A stretch of 64,000 nt of DNA from Patescibacteria group bacterium (GCA_041645215.1 JBAZQK010000008.1:1744-65743); one strand, 5' to 3'. Positions 6,116-25,145 are shown, counted from the stretch's first letter. The notes: a model not told the origin generated them from the sequence alone. Made by a program: numbers and translations.

Positions 6116-6244
6116 AAGTCCTTGGCAGAAAAATTTTATTAAAATTTTTCTGCGTTAGACAAACGGGATATTCATAACATAACAATGGGACTGTCTGAAA
6201 TTGATTATTTTGATCATATAAAGACAGACTTCTAACGGGGTGAA
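6103..6244. mobile_element. CCCCGTTAGAA-TIR element copy a (long form, GTC subtype)
   Basis: Perfect 14-bp TIR CCCCGTTAGAAGTC (6107-6120) / GACTTCTAACGGGG (6227-6240), 4-bp direct repeats TGAA at 6103-6106 and 6241-6244; internal 13-bp-stem hairpin GCAGAAAAATTTT-ATT-AAAATTTTTCTGC. Confidence 0.75.
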
Positions 6245-6890
6245 TAAAAAAATAAACGTTTCTACAATTGTTATCGCAATAGTAATTATTGCCGCCATAG
6301 GTCTTTTGATTTGGGGCGGCAGCCAGAATAAAACCAGCGCGCCGGCGGTGGATCAGCATGGGATGCCAATTGCCGCCAATACTTCGGTGGCGCCGCTTAA
6401 TGAACTGGTCAATAAATCGGCGCCGGATTTCGCGTTAGCTGACAAAGATGGCAAAATATATTCATTGAATGAATTACGGGGCAAAAACATTGTCCTCTTC
6501 TTTAACGAAGGATTAATGTGCTATCCTGCATGCTGGAACCAAATCGTTTCGCTCTCGCAAGACGAGCGCTTCAAAAATGACGACACCGTAATTCTCTCGG
6601 TTGTGGTTGACTCCAAAGAAGATTGGCAGCGCGCGGTTAACAAGATGCCCGAACTTGTTCAAGCGGCGGTAGTTTTTGATAACAACGCGTCTGTCTCAAA
6701 AAAGTTTGGCGTTCTTGCAACCCCGTCTTCTATGCACCCCGGTTCGCTTCCCGGTCATACCTATGTCTTGATTGATAAAGAAGGAATAATTAGATATGTT
6801 TTTGACGATCCGAATATGGGAATCCGCAACGATCAGTTAGTTGCAGAAATTTCGAAATTATCCCCGAGTAGTACTGGAAATACACCATAA
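6240..6890 (+). CDS. Thioredoxin-fold (redoxin/TlpA-like) protein with signal anchor and atypical CxxxC motif
   Basis: 216 aa; N-terminal TM; GKNIVLFFNEGLMCYPACW redoxin-like active-site region; candidate GTG start formed by the TIR/direct-repeat junction. Confidence 0.55.
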   Translation: MNKKINVSTIVIAIVIIAAIGLLIWGGSQNKTSAPAVDQHGMPIAANTSVAPLNELVNKSAPDFALADKDGKIYSLNELRGKNIVLFFNEGLMCYPACWNQIVSLSQDERFKNDDTVILSVVVDSKEDWQRAVNKMPELVQAAVVFDNNASVSKKFGVLATPSSMHPGSLPGHTYVLIDKEGIIRYVFDDPNMGIRNDQLVAEISKLSPSSTGNTP

Positions 6891-6937
6891 GGCCGATCAA
6901 TGCTAATTAATCAAAAGTAATCAGATTAACAATCAAT

Positions 6938-22283: not shown

Positions 22284-23005
22284 TTGCCATTATTGACTAC
22301 AAGGCAGGCAATATTGCGTCTGTAAAAAACGCTCTGGAACGACTTGGGCGAGCGTGTGTTGTTACATCCGAGCCGAAAGAAATTTTATCAGCTGACGGCG
22401 TAATATTCCCGGGTCAAGGCCGGGCTGGCGCCGCAATGTCGAACTTAAGAAAAACCGGCATTGATAAGATTATTCCTCAAATTACAAAACCGTTTTTGGG
22501 TATTTGTCTGGGGATGCAACTACTTGGCTCAACTTCCGCAGAAGATAAGACAGAATGCCTTGAGATTTTTCAGGGTGTGTGTCGCAAATTCCCGCCGACA
22601 TTAAAAACCCCGCATCTTGGCTGGAATAAAGTTGAATTGACGGGAGAGTCATCCTTAACCACTGGTATCCAAAACGGGGCATACTTTTATTTTGTGCACT
22701 CATATTACGTTGACCCCGTTAGAAGTCCTCGGCGTAAAAATTGCTGTGCAATTTTTACGCGGTATCAATCAGAGCTCACTACTGAAAGTTGTCGTGATAA
22801 TGACACAATGTCATTATCACGACCAAAGCCGACTTCTAACGGGGTTGATGTTGCGGAAGCTCAAATTGTCGGAAAAACAAGTTATGGTTTTGATTTTCCA
22901 TCGATTATGCAAAAAGGTAATTTTTTTGCAGTCCAGTTTCACCCTGAAAAATCAGGTGAGCAAGGTTTACGATTACTCAATAATTTTTGTGAACTATGTA
23001 TATAA
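22280..23005 (+). CDS. hisH: Imidazole glycerol phosphate synthase glutaminase subunit HisH carrying an in-frame 45-codon TIR-element insertion
   Basis: 241 aa; ...GICLGMQLL...HLGWNKV...YFVHSYYVD [45-aa insert PVRSPRRKNCC...KPTSNGV] DVAEAQ...KGNFFAVQFHPEKS; removal of 22714..22848 restores E. coli-like spacing. Confidence 0.85.
   Translation: MIAIIDYKAGNIASVKNALERLGRACVVTSEPKEILSADGVIFPGQGRAGAAMSNLRKTGIDKIIPQITKPFLGICLGMQLLGSTSAEDKTECLEIFQGVCRKFPPTLKTPHLGWNKVELTGESSLTTGIQNGAYFYFVHSYYVDPVRSPRRKNCCAIFTRYQSELTTESCRDNDTMSLSRPKPTSNGVDVAEAQIVGKTSYGFDFPSIMQKGNFFAVQFHPEKSGEQGLRLLNNFCELCI
22710..22848. mobile_element. CCCCGTTAGAA-TIR element copy d (long form, GTC subtype) inserted in-frame inside hisH
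   Basis: Perfect TIR 22714-22727/22831-22844; direct repeats TTGA 22710-13 and 22845-48; element (131 bp) + one repeat = 135 nt. Internal hairpins GCGTAAAAATTGC-TGT-GCAATTTTTACGC and a 15-bp stem GTCGTGATAATGACA-CAA-TGTCATTATCACGAC. Confidence 0.85.
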
Positions 23006-24471
23006 TACCAGCAATTGACATAATGAACGGCAAATGTGTGCGTTTAGCGCAAGGAAATTTTGCGAAGTCAACCATCTACAACAGCAATCCGGTTGAGGTT
23101 GCGAAAGATTTTGCAAAGCAAGGAGCGCAATCCTTGCATATTGTTGATTTGGACGGCGCAAAATCGGGCTTTCCAGTAAACTTGGAAACAGTCCTTGCCA
23201 TCGTTAAATCGGTCAACATTCCGCTTCAAGTTGGCGGCGGCATACGCTTGTACGATCAGGCGCAAAAATATCTTGAAAATGGCATTGAGAAAATTATTTT
23301 AAGCACTGTTGCCATAGAAGACCCAAAATTGCTGGAGCGTCTATTGGAGGAATTTGGAAGTTATAGAGTTACAGTTTCAGTGGATATTGATGATGGACAA
23401 GTCGCTACTCGCGGCTGGATGAAAAAGAACACAAAAACTGTTCCGGGCCTTGTTAGTTTTCTCAAAAAAGTGGGTATCACATCGGTCATTGTAACCGACA
23501 TTTCCAAAGACGGCTTACTTAAAGGGCCAAATTTTGATTTGGCAAAAGAATTTATCAACGAAGGATTCAAAACTGTTGTGGCTGGCGGCGTATCATCTTT
23601 GGGAGATTTAGAGAAGTTGAATAAGCTAGGTGCATTTGGCGCAATAATTGGGAAAGCAATGTATGAGGGAAAAGTTGATCTGCGAGAAGCGCAGGAAAGA
23701 GTCGCTTATAAAAACAATCTTGCCAAAAGAATCATTCCTTGCCTTGATGTAAAAAATGGGCGGGTAGTAAAGGGCATACGCTTTAGCGATTTGTGCGATG
23801 CTGGTGATCCGGTTGAACTGGGAAAACGATACTGCGAGTTAGGTGCGGACGAGCTTATTTTTCTTGATATAGCCGCCACACTGGAAAATCGCAAAACACT
23901 TTGCGAGTTGGTTTCAAAGATTGCCAAAGAAATAAACATACCTTTTACCGTTGGTGGCGGCATTTCAACGTTTGAGGATATAAAAAATCTCCTTAATGCC
24001 GGGGCCGACAAGGTCTCCATTGGGTCCGCGGCGGTGAAAAATCCTAATTTTGTCAAGGAGGCGGCGGAGTATTTTGGTTCTCAATGCATCGTTATTTCTG
24101 TTGACGCGAAAAGGCAAAATGAGGGCTGGAAAATTTATATAAAGGGCGGGTCAGAAAAAACAGATATTGACGCTATAGAATTTTCCAAACAAATGGAAAA
24201 ACTCGGCGCCGGGGAACTTCTGGTGAATAGTTTAGACCGCGACGGAACCAGAGAAGGATTTGATCTGGAGTTGTTAGAAAGTATTACAGACAGTGTGAAT
24301 ATTCCGGTGATTGCCTCAAGTGGTGCCGGTTCAATGCAAGATTTTCTGGCCGTTTTTCAAAAAACAAACGTTGATGCCGCTCTTGGAGCAAGCATATTCC
24401 ACTATCAAGAAGTAAACATAATGGAACTCAAGAAATTTTTATCCAATAATAATTTACCCATACGCGTATGA
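22996..24471 (+). CDS. hisA-hisF: Fused HisA (ProFAR isomerase) - HisF (IGP synthase cyclase subunit)
   Basis: 491 aa; N-terminal IIPAIDIMNGKCVRL...(HisA), C-terminal RIIPCLDVKNGRVVKG...(HisF); TIM-barrel phosphate-binding GG motifs in both halves. Confidence 0.85.
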   Translation: MYIIPAIDIMNGKCVRLAQGNFAKSTIYNSNPVEVAKDFAKQGAQSLHIVDLDGAKSGFPVNLETVLAIVKSVNIPLQVGGGIRLYDQAQKYLENGIEKIILSTVAIEDPKLLERLLEEFGSYRVTVSVDIDDGQVATRGWMKKNTKTVPGLVSFLKKVGITSVIVTDISKDGLLKGPNFDLAKEFINEGFKTVVAGGVSSLGDLEKLNKLGAFGAIIGKAMYEGKVDLREAQERVAYKNNLAKRIIPCLDVKNGRVVKGIRFSDLCDAGDPVELGKRYCELGADELIFLDIAATLENRKTLCELVSKIAKEINIPFTVGGGISTFEDIKNLLNAGADKVSIGSAAVKNPNFVKEAAEYFGSQCIVISVDAKRQNEGWKIYIKGGSEKTDIDAIEFSKQMEKLGAGELLVNSLDRDGTREGFDLELLESITDSVNIPVIASSGAGSMQDFLAVFQKTNVDAALGASIFHYQEVNIMELKKFLSNNNLPIRV

Positions 24472-25145
24472 ACCCCGTTAGAAATAATATAAAAAATATA
24501 ATAAACCCTGTTAGGAACAAAATTTCTAACGGGGTGAATAAACTTAATATCCAACAATTGGATTTTGATAAGTTGGGCGAGATTATTCCTGCAATCATCC
24601 AAGATGCTGAAACAAAAGCTGTCCTTATGCTGGGATTTATGGATAAAGAGGCACTGAACAAAACAATCAAAAGCAAAAAAGTTACATTTTGGAGTAGAAC
24701 AAAAAAACGACTTTGGGAGAAAGGCGAAATTTCGGGCAATACGCTTGAAGTAATCTCCATTGCTGCCGATTGCGATAATGACATACTTTTGGTTTTGGCA
24801 AAGCCGAAAGGACCAACGTGCCACACCGGCGCTTATTCTTGTTTTGGAACTAAAAAGCAAGGTGGGCTTGAATTTTTGCAAGAGCTTTATGATTTGCTAG
24901 TTGCAAGAAAAAAGGATTTACCGAAAAATTCTTACACGACCTCGCTTTTCAACCAGGGGTTGGTTAAAATTTTAGAGAAGGTTGAGGAAGAATCAGGCGA
25001 GGCGCTGCAAGCTGCCAGAAAAGAGACAAGAACGCGGCTTATTGAGGAAAGCTCCGATTTGTTATATCACCTGTTCGTACTGCTTGTTCAAAAAAATATT
25101 TCTCTCAACGATATTACCCAAGAACTCCAACGCCGAAAAAAATAG
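24468..25145 (+). CDS. hisIE: Bifunctional PR-AMP cyclohydrolase / PR-ATP pyrophosphatase (HisIE)
   Basis: IPAIIQDAETKAVLMLGFMDKEAL (HisI) and LYDLLVARKKD...LYHLFVLL (HisE). The listed ATG 24468 lies in the element; homology suggests the start is the junction GTG at 24534. Confidence 0.85.
   Translation: MNPVRNNIKNIINPVRNKISNGVNKLNIQQLDFDKLGEIIPAIIQDAETKAVLMLGFMDKEALNKTIKSKKVTFWSRTKKRLWEKGEISGNTLEVISIAADCDNDILLVLAKPKGPTCHTGAYSCFGTKKQGGLEFLQELYDLLVARKKDLPKNSYTTSLFNQGLVKILEKVEEESGEALQAARKETRTRLIEESSDLLYHLFVLLVQKNISLNDITQELQRRKK
24469..24538. mobile_element. CCCCGTTAGAA-TIR element copy e (short form, ATT subtype)
   Basis: TIR 24473-24486/24521-24534 (13/14); direct repeats TGAA 24469-72 and 24535-38; degenerate internal copy AACCCTGTTAGGAA. 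Confidence 0.7.

Follow-up and report, generated by a model that had tools for sequence, protein, structure and literature searches.

Introduction

Rickettsia palindromic elements (RPE; Ogata et al. 2000, in the summaries of PMC10969869 and PMC3184786) are described there as short palindromes of ~100-150 bp from a reduced genome that lie in frame in unrelated genes and are translated. The Correia elements of Neisseria (CREE/NEMIS) are transposable elements of the miniature inverted-repeat type (MITEs), abundant at gene boundaries, whose hairpin is co-transcribed and whose ends create signals for the neighbouring genes (PMC3184786). According to the same review's summary, Neisseria REP2 and Borrelia IR repeats supply the initiation codon of a downstream open reading frame (ORF). 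ERIC, BOX and MITEAba12-type repeats are summarised as fusing with ORFs, extending or truncating 3' ends and carrying short terminal ORFs (Delihas 2007 and Croucher 2011 via PMC3184786; PMC6382973), and the overviews also mention repeats that are fused in frame, lengthen 3' ends or bring with them a promoter, a site for ribosome binding and an ATG (PMC3184786; PMC6382973). A MITE review from 2024 (PMC10969869) never uses the terms "start codon" and "stop codon". Here we describe a family of short palindromes with the ends CCCCGTTAGAA.../...TTCTAACGGGG, found in a 64,000-nt stretch of a Patescibacteria metagenome contig (GCA_041645215.1 JBAZQK010000008.1:1744-65743; the window in what follows), and compare it with these systems.

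Like RPE, the family consists of palindromes that proliferate in a reduced genome and form in-frame translated peptide segments, which are predicted here (45 codons in hisH of the window, 23 in that of the related contig L002). To judge from the RPE descriptions, it is set apart by its Patescibacteria host, its sharp terminal inverted repeats of 11-13 bp and a clear 4-bp TNNA duplication; moreover, its sizes reach down to 32-42 nt, and many copies sit exactly on start/stop junctions, where they rebuild codons. The Correia element has a TA target duplication, a 26-bp Correia repeat and ends that give promoter elements and an IHF site. The present family resembles it as a MITE with terminal inverted repeats and target duplication, whose ends give functional signals to the neighbours. 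However, it duplicates TNNA (TAAA, TGAA, TTGA and their complements) and not TA, so that an identity with the Correia element was rejected; its ends CCCCGTTAGAA give a GTG start and a TAG stop, and the sequences are unrelated. Unlike in REP2 and Borrelia IR repeats, the start is formed at the junction of element and target (G + TG) and replaces the native ATG in place. Whereas fusions with ERIC, BOX and MITEAba12 are occasional and often give rise to pseudogenes, the arrangement found here is systematic: 20 of 21 downstream ORFs in frame, 14 ends of the type ...PR-stop, 12 of 13 intragenic copies frame-preserving.

Two further known types differ from the family. REP/REPIN sequences, which are mobilised by RAYT, have no target duplication, and the RAYT (HUH) gene is flanked by the repeats; the present copies show a target duplication, and no RAYT/HUH gene was seen beside them, although an orientation bias (see below) keeps a single-strand mechanism in play as a rival. 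Integron attC sites have the motif order RYYYAAC ... GTTRRRY and form arrays of one orientation between cassettes, whereas here the order is inverted (GTTAGAA left, TTCTAAC right) and the sites are insertions in an otherwise conserved his operon. Among the papers searched, we found none with this end sequence and none that ties MITEs to Patescibacteria or the candidate phyla radiation (CPR). The family is apparently new and undescribed, MITE-like or RPE-like, and its notable new feature is the systematic junction geometry, in which ATG becomes GTG at the same codon and ...PR-stop is appended to the upstream product. Probably, the element is a non-autonomous, MITE-like mobile palindrome that restores the codons at the gene junctions it splits.

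Results and discussion

A family of palindromes with inverted ends and 4-bp direct repeats

The 13-nt end CCCGTTAGAAGTC (at most two mismatches) occurs 14 times in the window, against a chance expectation of 0.94, and the occurrences form seven close inverted pairs. These delimit seven palindromic copies with cores of 42-134 nt, accompanied by one diverged variant copy (Table 1). The inverted repeats CCCCGTTAGAA/TTCTAACGGGG are perfect in all seven copies and often lengthened to 13-20 bp; for the family as a whole they can be written as perfect repeats of 11-13 bp, CCCCGTTAGAAR...YTTCTAACGGGG. All eight copies in the window have flanking 4-bp direct repeats (three TGAA, one TGAA/TAAA, one TTGA, three TTTA). 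The interiors are hairpins differing in sequence and length. RNA folding gave a closed structure for every window copy, with the paired ends as basal stem (-22 to -74 kcal/mol, z = -4 to -13); copy a, for instance, forms a closed hairpin of -50.5 kcal/mol (z = -8.5). Known core sizes extend from 32 to 134 nt, with a few composites of up to 287 nt, too short for any long ORF. The family has the attributes by which MITEs are recognised: it is short and devoid of a transposase gene, has terminal inverted repeats and a target duplication with filled and empty sites, and occurs in many dispersed copies. Rfam, searched at the gathering threshold, gave just four tRNAs in the window, and a known RNA family was discarded on this basis.

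Start codons rebuilt at filled sites

Related metagenome loci are denoted by L and a number; the nearest genomes are of Patescibacteria/CPR type, L002 (HisD identity 88%) and L003 (81%). At the junction of a dsbD-like gene and a redoxin gene, copy a and its right repeat create a GTG (6240-6242) in frame with the redoxin ORF 6240..6890. Because of an in-frame TAA at 6219 and the lack of an alternative start, this GTG is the only start that preserves the redoxin N-terminus, in agreement with the initial annotation, which had assigned it to a thioredoxin-like gene without another start. The exact 216-aa product has been annotated by NCBI with the GTG start, and about 40 redoxin orthologues begin MNKKINVST or MKKNNVST, aligned exactly with V(M)NKKINVST of the window. 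L206 has the empty site, aaaaagATGAAGAAAAATAACGTTTCT, where the overlap with the upstream gene is 14 nt. Furthermore, L207 (ATG, empty) and L204 (GTG, element, TGAA repeated) have near-identical flanks and differ by the element plus TGAA; the pair is a presence/absence polymorphism.

The distribution of copies at this dsbD-like/redoxin junction is patchy. Its ATGAA is filled in the window (6103-6244) and in L204 (about 727-829), where the proteins are 72% identical and the right halves of the interiors similar, and it is empty in the closer relative of each, L206 and L207. This pattern could be due to independent insertions or to precise excision. In L202 (2444-2530), the right end at the redoxin junction reads TTCTAACGGG-ATGAAA; the terminal G is replaced by A, so that ATG is restored, which could be a later G-to-A change repairing the start. 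The gene caller nonetheless took an ATG inside the element of L202 (MNTQISNG-MKK).

In the his operon, the same geometry is seen at two genes. The junction GTG of hisS lies at 16870-16872, in frame and at the native start position; the initial annotation had recognised the frame but placed the codon at 16871. Empty sites are present in L003 and L002, and L003 reads ctattATGAACAAGATTGAACC where the window has attATGAA, 80 nt and TGAACAAGATTCAACC. The NCBIfam hisS model aligns from residue 9 of the protein started at GTG. Likewise, the GTG at 24534-24536 shares the frame of hisIE, as had been proposed, and occupies the position of the native start; the HisIE profile is fully covered from it. At this site, the sequence of L002 is gtATGAAAAAACTTGAT, in which the ATG and the hisAF TGA overlap, and the window has gtATGAA, 62 nt and TGAATAAACTT.

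The alignment of orthologues at the element boundaries had been named beforehand as a check on these starts, and the orthologues of hisS, hisIE and the redoxin turned out to have no N-terminal extension. The empty orthologous sites can be regarded as proof that the copies are insertions. They bear out the general claim that the elements rewrite the termini and initiation regions of genes, since the new codons stand exactly at the old positions, and they rule out that the copies are ancestral regulatory hairpins. A paralogous empty site within the window was considered and dropped, as ORF 7460..8101 is not homologous to 5231..6115.

At hisG, a different solution is found. The right repeat of copy c is TAAA, which gives GTA and not GTG at the junction, and some 12-15 nt of the ancestral hisG 5' end are lost. 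The ATG at 18192, correctly placed inside copy c by the initial annotation, follows an in-frame TAA at 18174 without another start in between and, as far as can be predicted, is the only canonical start option of hisG. The product, MKLQKYTISNG-VKIAIQ, begins with 11 element-encoded residues, and the hisG profile begins at residue 12. In the relatives, the hisS/hisG junction reads ctactATGAAACGCAATAACATTAGAATCGCA and HisG starts MKRNNIRIAIQ.

Stop codons at the element ends

In one frame, the left element end reads CCC-CGT-TAG. Both the DsbD-like ORF 5231..6115 and the HisRS-like gene end in TAT GAA CCC CGT TAG (YEPR-stop), and in both the TAG stems from the element end, as had been noticed before. 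In relatives, the HisS C-terminus is NYYETQ-stop or NYYEAQ-stop, compared with NYYEPR-stop in the window. Two other stops attributed to the elements have a different origin. The TGA of hisAF (24469-24471, in gtaTGAacc) does lie in the left repeat of copy e, and the TAA of parB (minus strand, 37214-37216) in the right TTTA repeat of copy f, but they are native stops that the target duplication has kept; the element does not supply them. For parA (minus strand), the claim of an element-encoded terminus holds: the stop (38192-38194) and the last eight codons (SRYISTGY-stop) fall inside the variant copy.

Table 1. Copies of the element in the window and stop codons encoded by their ends. Positions of copies are those of the CCCC..GGGG cores.
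Feature	Position	Core size	Strand	Flanking repeat	Whole	Remark
Copy a	6107-6240	134 nt		TGAA at 6103-6106 and 6241-6244	6103..6244	
Copy b	16791-16870	80 nt		TGAA duplication	16787..16874	
Copy c	18151-18225	75 nt		left TGAA, right TAAA	18147..18229	
Copy d	22714-22844	131 nt	+	TTGA duplication	22710..22848	
Copy e	24473-24534	62 nt		TGAA at 24469-24472 and 24535-24538	listed as 24468..24538	
Copy f	37171-37212	42 nt		TTTA duplication	37167..37216	
Variant copy	38118-38218			TTTA duplication	38114..38222	ends TCCCGTTACATTT/AAATGTAACGGGA; between parA and parB
Copy g	52052-52152	101 nt		TTTA duplication	52048..52156	
End-encoded TAG of copy a	6113-6115					terminates DsbD-like ORF 5231..6115
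End-encoded TAG of copy c	18157-18159					terminates HisRS (NYYEPR-stop)

Copy g is intergenic, 16 nt upstream of the ATG at 52036 (minus strand) of ORF 50915..52036, and its interior is a longer version of that of copy f, which resembles a copy g that has lost an internal part between ATGCCCCG repeats. Inside copy e, there is a degenerate end at 24507-24518 (CCCTGTTAGGAA), which suggests nested or partly duplicated ends.

Survey of metagenome contigs

A metagenome scan with paired ends gave at least 120 stretches; the counts in this section refer to 145 copies from more than 120 metagenome contigs, among the matches listed. About 100 of 142 copies have the same repeat on both sides (31 TAAA, 29 TTTA, 16 TGAA, 9 TTCA, 8 TTGA, 6 TCAA), which by class makes 60 TAAA/TTTA, 25 TGAA/TTCA and 14 TTGA/TCAA pairs. 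When the right flank is TGAA, an open frame of at least 100 codons follows in 21 of 37 copies, and it is the GTG frame in 20 of these 21 (binomial p = 4e-9). The N-termini of the ORFs in the GTG frame look native, e.g. VKILFTGGGTGGH, VKILITGGCGFLGSN and VNKKKVVVTGGAGFI. In eight cases (window 6240, L087, L091, L143, L171, L175 and two in L177), the junction GTG is the sole start, with an in-frame stop inside the element and no other start available. For these eight, that is the redoxin and seven cases elsewhere, the sequences make a compelling case that GTG is used. Long ORFs that enter a copy stop at the end-encoded TAG (14), in the left repeat (21) or elsewhere in the element (8), or they read through (22). 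In about half of the junction-start cases, an upstream long ORF has its stop in the left repeat (TGA) or uses the end-encoded TAG.

The occupied sites have a distinct context. Of 25 occupied TGAA sites, 18 are preceded by A, 6 by G and 1 by T, whereas G precedes TAAA in 44 of 59 (Fisher p = 9e-7 between the classes); the window background is 26% A and 16% G. Gene starts make up 74% of the occupied TGAA sites versus 11% of the unoccupied R-TGAA sites on the same contigs (odds ratio 22, p = 6e-12), and 28% when only non-coding unoccupied sites are compared (odds ratio 7, p = 9e-6). From the base counts and the comparison of occupied with unoccupied sites, a purine preference at -1 plus an extra excess at start codons can be deduced. 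The latter may reflect either a wider target motif or better tolerance. A 5- or 6-bp duplication, suggested by the G before TAAA in 75%, was rejected: about 20% of the copies have neither G before nor C after, and ATGAA sites show GTGAA on the right.

Thirteen different contigs carry copies of a 95-nt subfamily with identities of at least 90%, and this similarity points to recent spread. Among these 13 copies, compensatory changes are confined to 1 of 30 pairs, so that a conserved RNA structure finds no support.

Insertions inside genes

Copy d plus one repeat amounts to 135 nt, or 45 codons, which are open and in frame within hisH (22280..23005; ...YYVD-PVRS...TSNG-VDVAE...). In hisH of L002 (7390-7462), a 65-nt copy occupies the same TTGA site and adds 69 nt, or 23 codons, in frame, and HisH of L004 and L009 has no insertion. 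The site is thus filled in two species (HisD identity 88%). The ends of the two copies are identical, but their interiors are unrelated and their lengths differ (131 versus 65 nt); this could be due to repeated insertion at a hot spot or to turnover of the interior. Among clearly intragenic insertions, 12 of 13 are multiples of three (p = 2e-5) and 10 of 13 are free of stops, mostly reading NPVR...SNGV. Excision of intragenic copies at the RNA level is ruled out by the 12 of 13 that keep the frame.

Further copies fall within leader peptides encoded by type IV pilin-like genes (L180, about 6230-6300; L170, about 2150-2235), where GGG + TTTA + CC yields G-F-T, the prepilin cleavage motif. L144 has in-frame copies in a P-type ATPase-like ORF and in another ORF (168-265 and 2006-2076), with the end variant CCCCGTTAGAG. 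An apparent 1.9-kb "pair" in L144, a candidate for an autonomous element, dissolved into these two separate in-frame intragenic copies, and other distant pairs enclose ordinary genes.

Proposed mechanism and alternative explanations

The following sequence of events would account for the junctions. The element would insert into TNNA, with a purine favoured just before, and duplicate 4 bp. Because genes abut or overlap in the compact Patescibacteria genomes (ATGA, ATGAATAA), the preferred target R-TGAA would often coincide with a start codon plus AA (Met-Lys or Met-Asn) and with the upstream stop. Insertion would split ATG/AA in such a way that the original ATG and any overlapping TGA stop stay in the left repeat; the upstream gene, if read in the other frame, would be halted two codons later by the element end CCC CGT TAG (...PR-stop). 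On the right side, the terminal G of the element and the duplicated TGAA would give GTG AAx at exactly the old start position. Intragenic copies would survive only if element plus repeat is a multiple of three and free of stops, and would read ...PVR(S/N/K)...SNGV.... On comparative grounds, the insertions, the target duplication, the codon geometry and a strong context bias can be taken as shown, and we infer that the junction GTG is probably the start actually used.

Several points weigh against this reading. In hisS, alternative in-frame ATGs are present at 16840 and 16846 within copy b; the original hisIE ATG at 24468 is in frame across the 66-nt insertion (22 codons, stop-free); and the gene caller of the contig preferred ATGs inside or upstream of the element (HisRS 439 aa, HisIE 225 aa). 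Because of these ATGs, the junction GTG is but one candidate at hisS and hisIE. Moreover, a stable stem of 14-20 bp (-22 to -74 kcal/mol) closes with the junction GUG as its last paired base, and because of the strong stem and the rarity of Shine-Dalgarno motifs, de novo initiation at this codon may be weak or poor. No transposase-like ORF was found within lone or distant end pairs of the window and about 120 loci, and the search pattern demanded GGGGT at both ends, leaving variants with other junction bases under-sampled. It is quite possible, though not what we favour, that the junction GTG goes unused and that translation begins at ATGs upstream of or within the element, so that the proteins carry short N-terminal extensions encoded by it (in hisS from 16840/16846; in hisIE from 24468 via the 22 inserted codons). 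The gene callers' choices at hisS, hisIE and L202 agree with this, as do hisG, which must start inside its element, the many metagenome cases with an in-frame ATG 18-36 nt upstream of the junction, and the right end, which is open in the ATG-start frame (TCT AAC GGG GTG). However, upstream initiation is impossible for the redoxin and the seven other cases with an in-frame stop and no other start; only two of five ATGA-overlap cases are open from the old ATG, and the orthologues have no N-terminal extension. That the affected genes are inactivated and their start and stop codons mere leftovers of pseudogenes is highly improbable. One would normally expect an insertion in a start codon or within hisH to be disruptive, but all affected ORFs are intact and full length compared with the family profiles, the his operon is complete, the hisH copy is in frame in two species, and the intragenic copies keep the frame in all but one of 13 cases.

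The bias of the element towards starts and stops most likely reflects target preference together with the survival of harmless insertions. We regard it as rather doubtful that the fit is adaptive instead, with ends and target shaped for codon compatibility and with the stem bringing the upstream stop (UAG of the left arm or UGA of the repeat) beside the GUG, where a terminating ribosome, the stem being melted, would re-initiate and so keep overlapping genes coupled. Compatible with such coupling are the closed basal stem into which the ends of all copies fold, the upstream long ORFs whose stop, in about half of the junction-start cases, is exactly that of the left repeat or the end-encoded TAG, the overlapping layout before insertion (ATGA or ATGAATAA) and the paucity of Shine-Dalgarno motifs in the genome; the enrichment of start sites above other non-coding sites would suit an adaptive origin. 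On the other hand, no upstream ORF reads into copy b at hisS, the enrichment is also obtainable from target preference and purifying selection, and the 95-nt subfamily, with almost no compensatory change, gives no sign of a selected RNA structure. Re-initiation by ribosomes terminating in the left arm may nevertheless serve as an attractive model. In its widest form, which we put forward only tentatively, the family would be a CPR-wide, codon-compatible selfish element, whose target (purine + TNAA) and ends (terminal G, TAG in one frame, two open frames) are shaped for overlapping stop/start junctions, leader peptides and protein loops, and whose hairpin loops out, letting ribosomes that stop in the left arm start again at the GUG at the foot of the stem. 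If true, this would mean translational coupling across an insertion of 60-130 nt. A further question is whether the element is a DDE-type MITE at all. In the 95-nt subfamily (L084-L187) and other clusters, the orientation of the interior is tied to that of the flanking repeat, gTAAA(ATTCCAG...)TAAA; G stands before the left repeat in 30 of 32 copies, and in mismatched pairs the right repeat stays TAAA and the left usually deviates. The orientation tie hints at an asymmetric, possibly single-strand, mechanism. In line with these features and with interior hairpins that resemble abutted ends (CGGGG-CATTAAA-CCCCG), the element might be of a single-strand (HUH/RAYT-type, REPIN-like) or site-specific kind, placed in one orientation beside (R)TNAA, with the right "repeat" as part of the element. 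We consider this unlikely, as the flanking tetranucleotides co-vary within one subfamily (TAAA/TAAA, TGAA/TGAA) as for a true duplication, a 4-bp staggered cut agrees with both the perfect terminal inverted repeats and the L207/L204 pair, and no HUH gene was seen near the copies.

As a MITE-like palindrome with codon-restoring ends, the element shows how selfish DNA may spread where non-coding space is almost nil, the duplicated target and the end bases restoring the split stop and start codons. There are consequences for annotation, too. In-element ATGs, when chosen, would lead to false N-terminal extensions (HisRS 439 versus 429 aa; HisIE 225 versus 203 aa; L202 with its extra MNTQISNG), and C-termini of the type ...PR-stop as well as "insertions" of 20-45 residues in enzymes such as HisH would represent element sequence. 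Filled and empty pairs of the L204/L207 type are natural experiments on the replacement of ATG by GTG starts and on translational coupling in uncultured bacteria.

Gene setting and other repeats in the window

The his operon occupies 16.4-25.1 kb and consists of a trpR-like gene, the HisRS-like gene, hisG, hisD, a hisC/phosphatase fusion, hisB, hisH, a hisA-hisF fusion and hisIE. The HisRS-like gene had been labelled hisZ. With NCBIfam, it passes as hisS (404 bits, cut-off 287) and fails as hisZ (182 bits, cut-off 272), and the label was changed. This histidine-tRNA ligase (hisS)-scoring gene (16870-18159) has an anticodon-binding domain and lies upstream of a short-form hisG. Only about 6 of the 49 long ORFs of the window have a Shine-Dalgarno-like motif, and many starts are preceded by AT-rich sequence or by a TATAAT-like box ~7 nt upstream. 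Initiation in the host is suggested to be Shine-Dalgarno-independent or leaderless.

After the trpR-like gene, a terminator-like hairpin is found (ACCCGTTCAgatGAACGGGTTTTTT, 16738-16765), which is kept in L002 (about 1530-1556) and L003 (about 8050-8076) and whose stem is similar to the element ends (ACCCCGTTAGAA). A duplicated segment (4535-5189 and 7061-7428, 86-95% identical), which includes the ORFs 4891..5211 and 7130..7450, brackets the dsbD-like/redoxin pair. At 48218-48395 and 50366-50543, the window has two copies of a 178-nt repeat with 98% identity, each with inverted ends of 24 nt (ATGAGATGGTTTCAAAACCCTTTT), apparently a second MITE-like family without relation to the first. Two more families of short palindromes, GTCCTCC..GGAGGAC and TAAGGACTTACGC, are intergenic, with sites at 25169, 45283 and 58413; 34805 and 41025; and 12463, 16044 and 16205.

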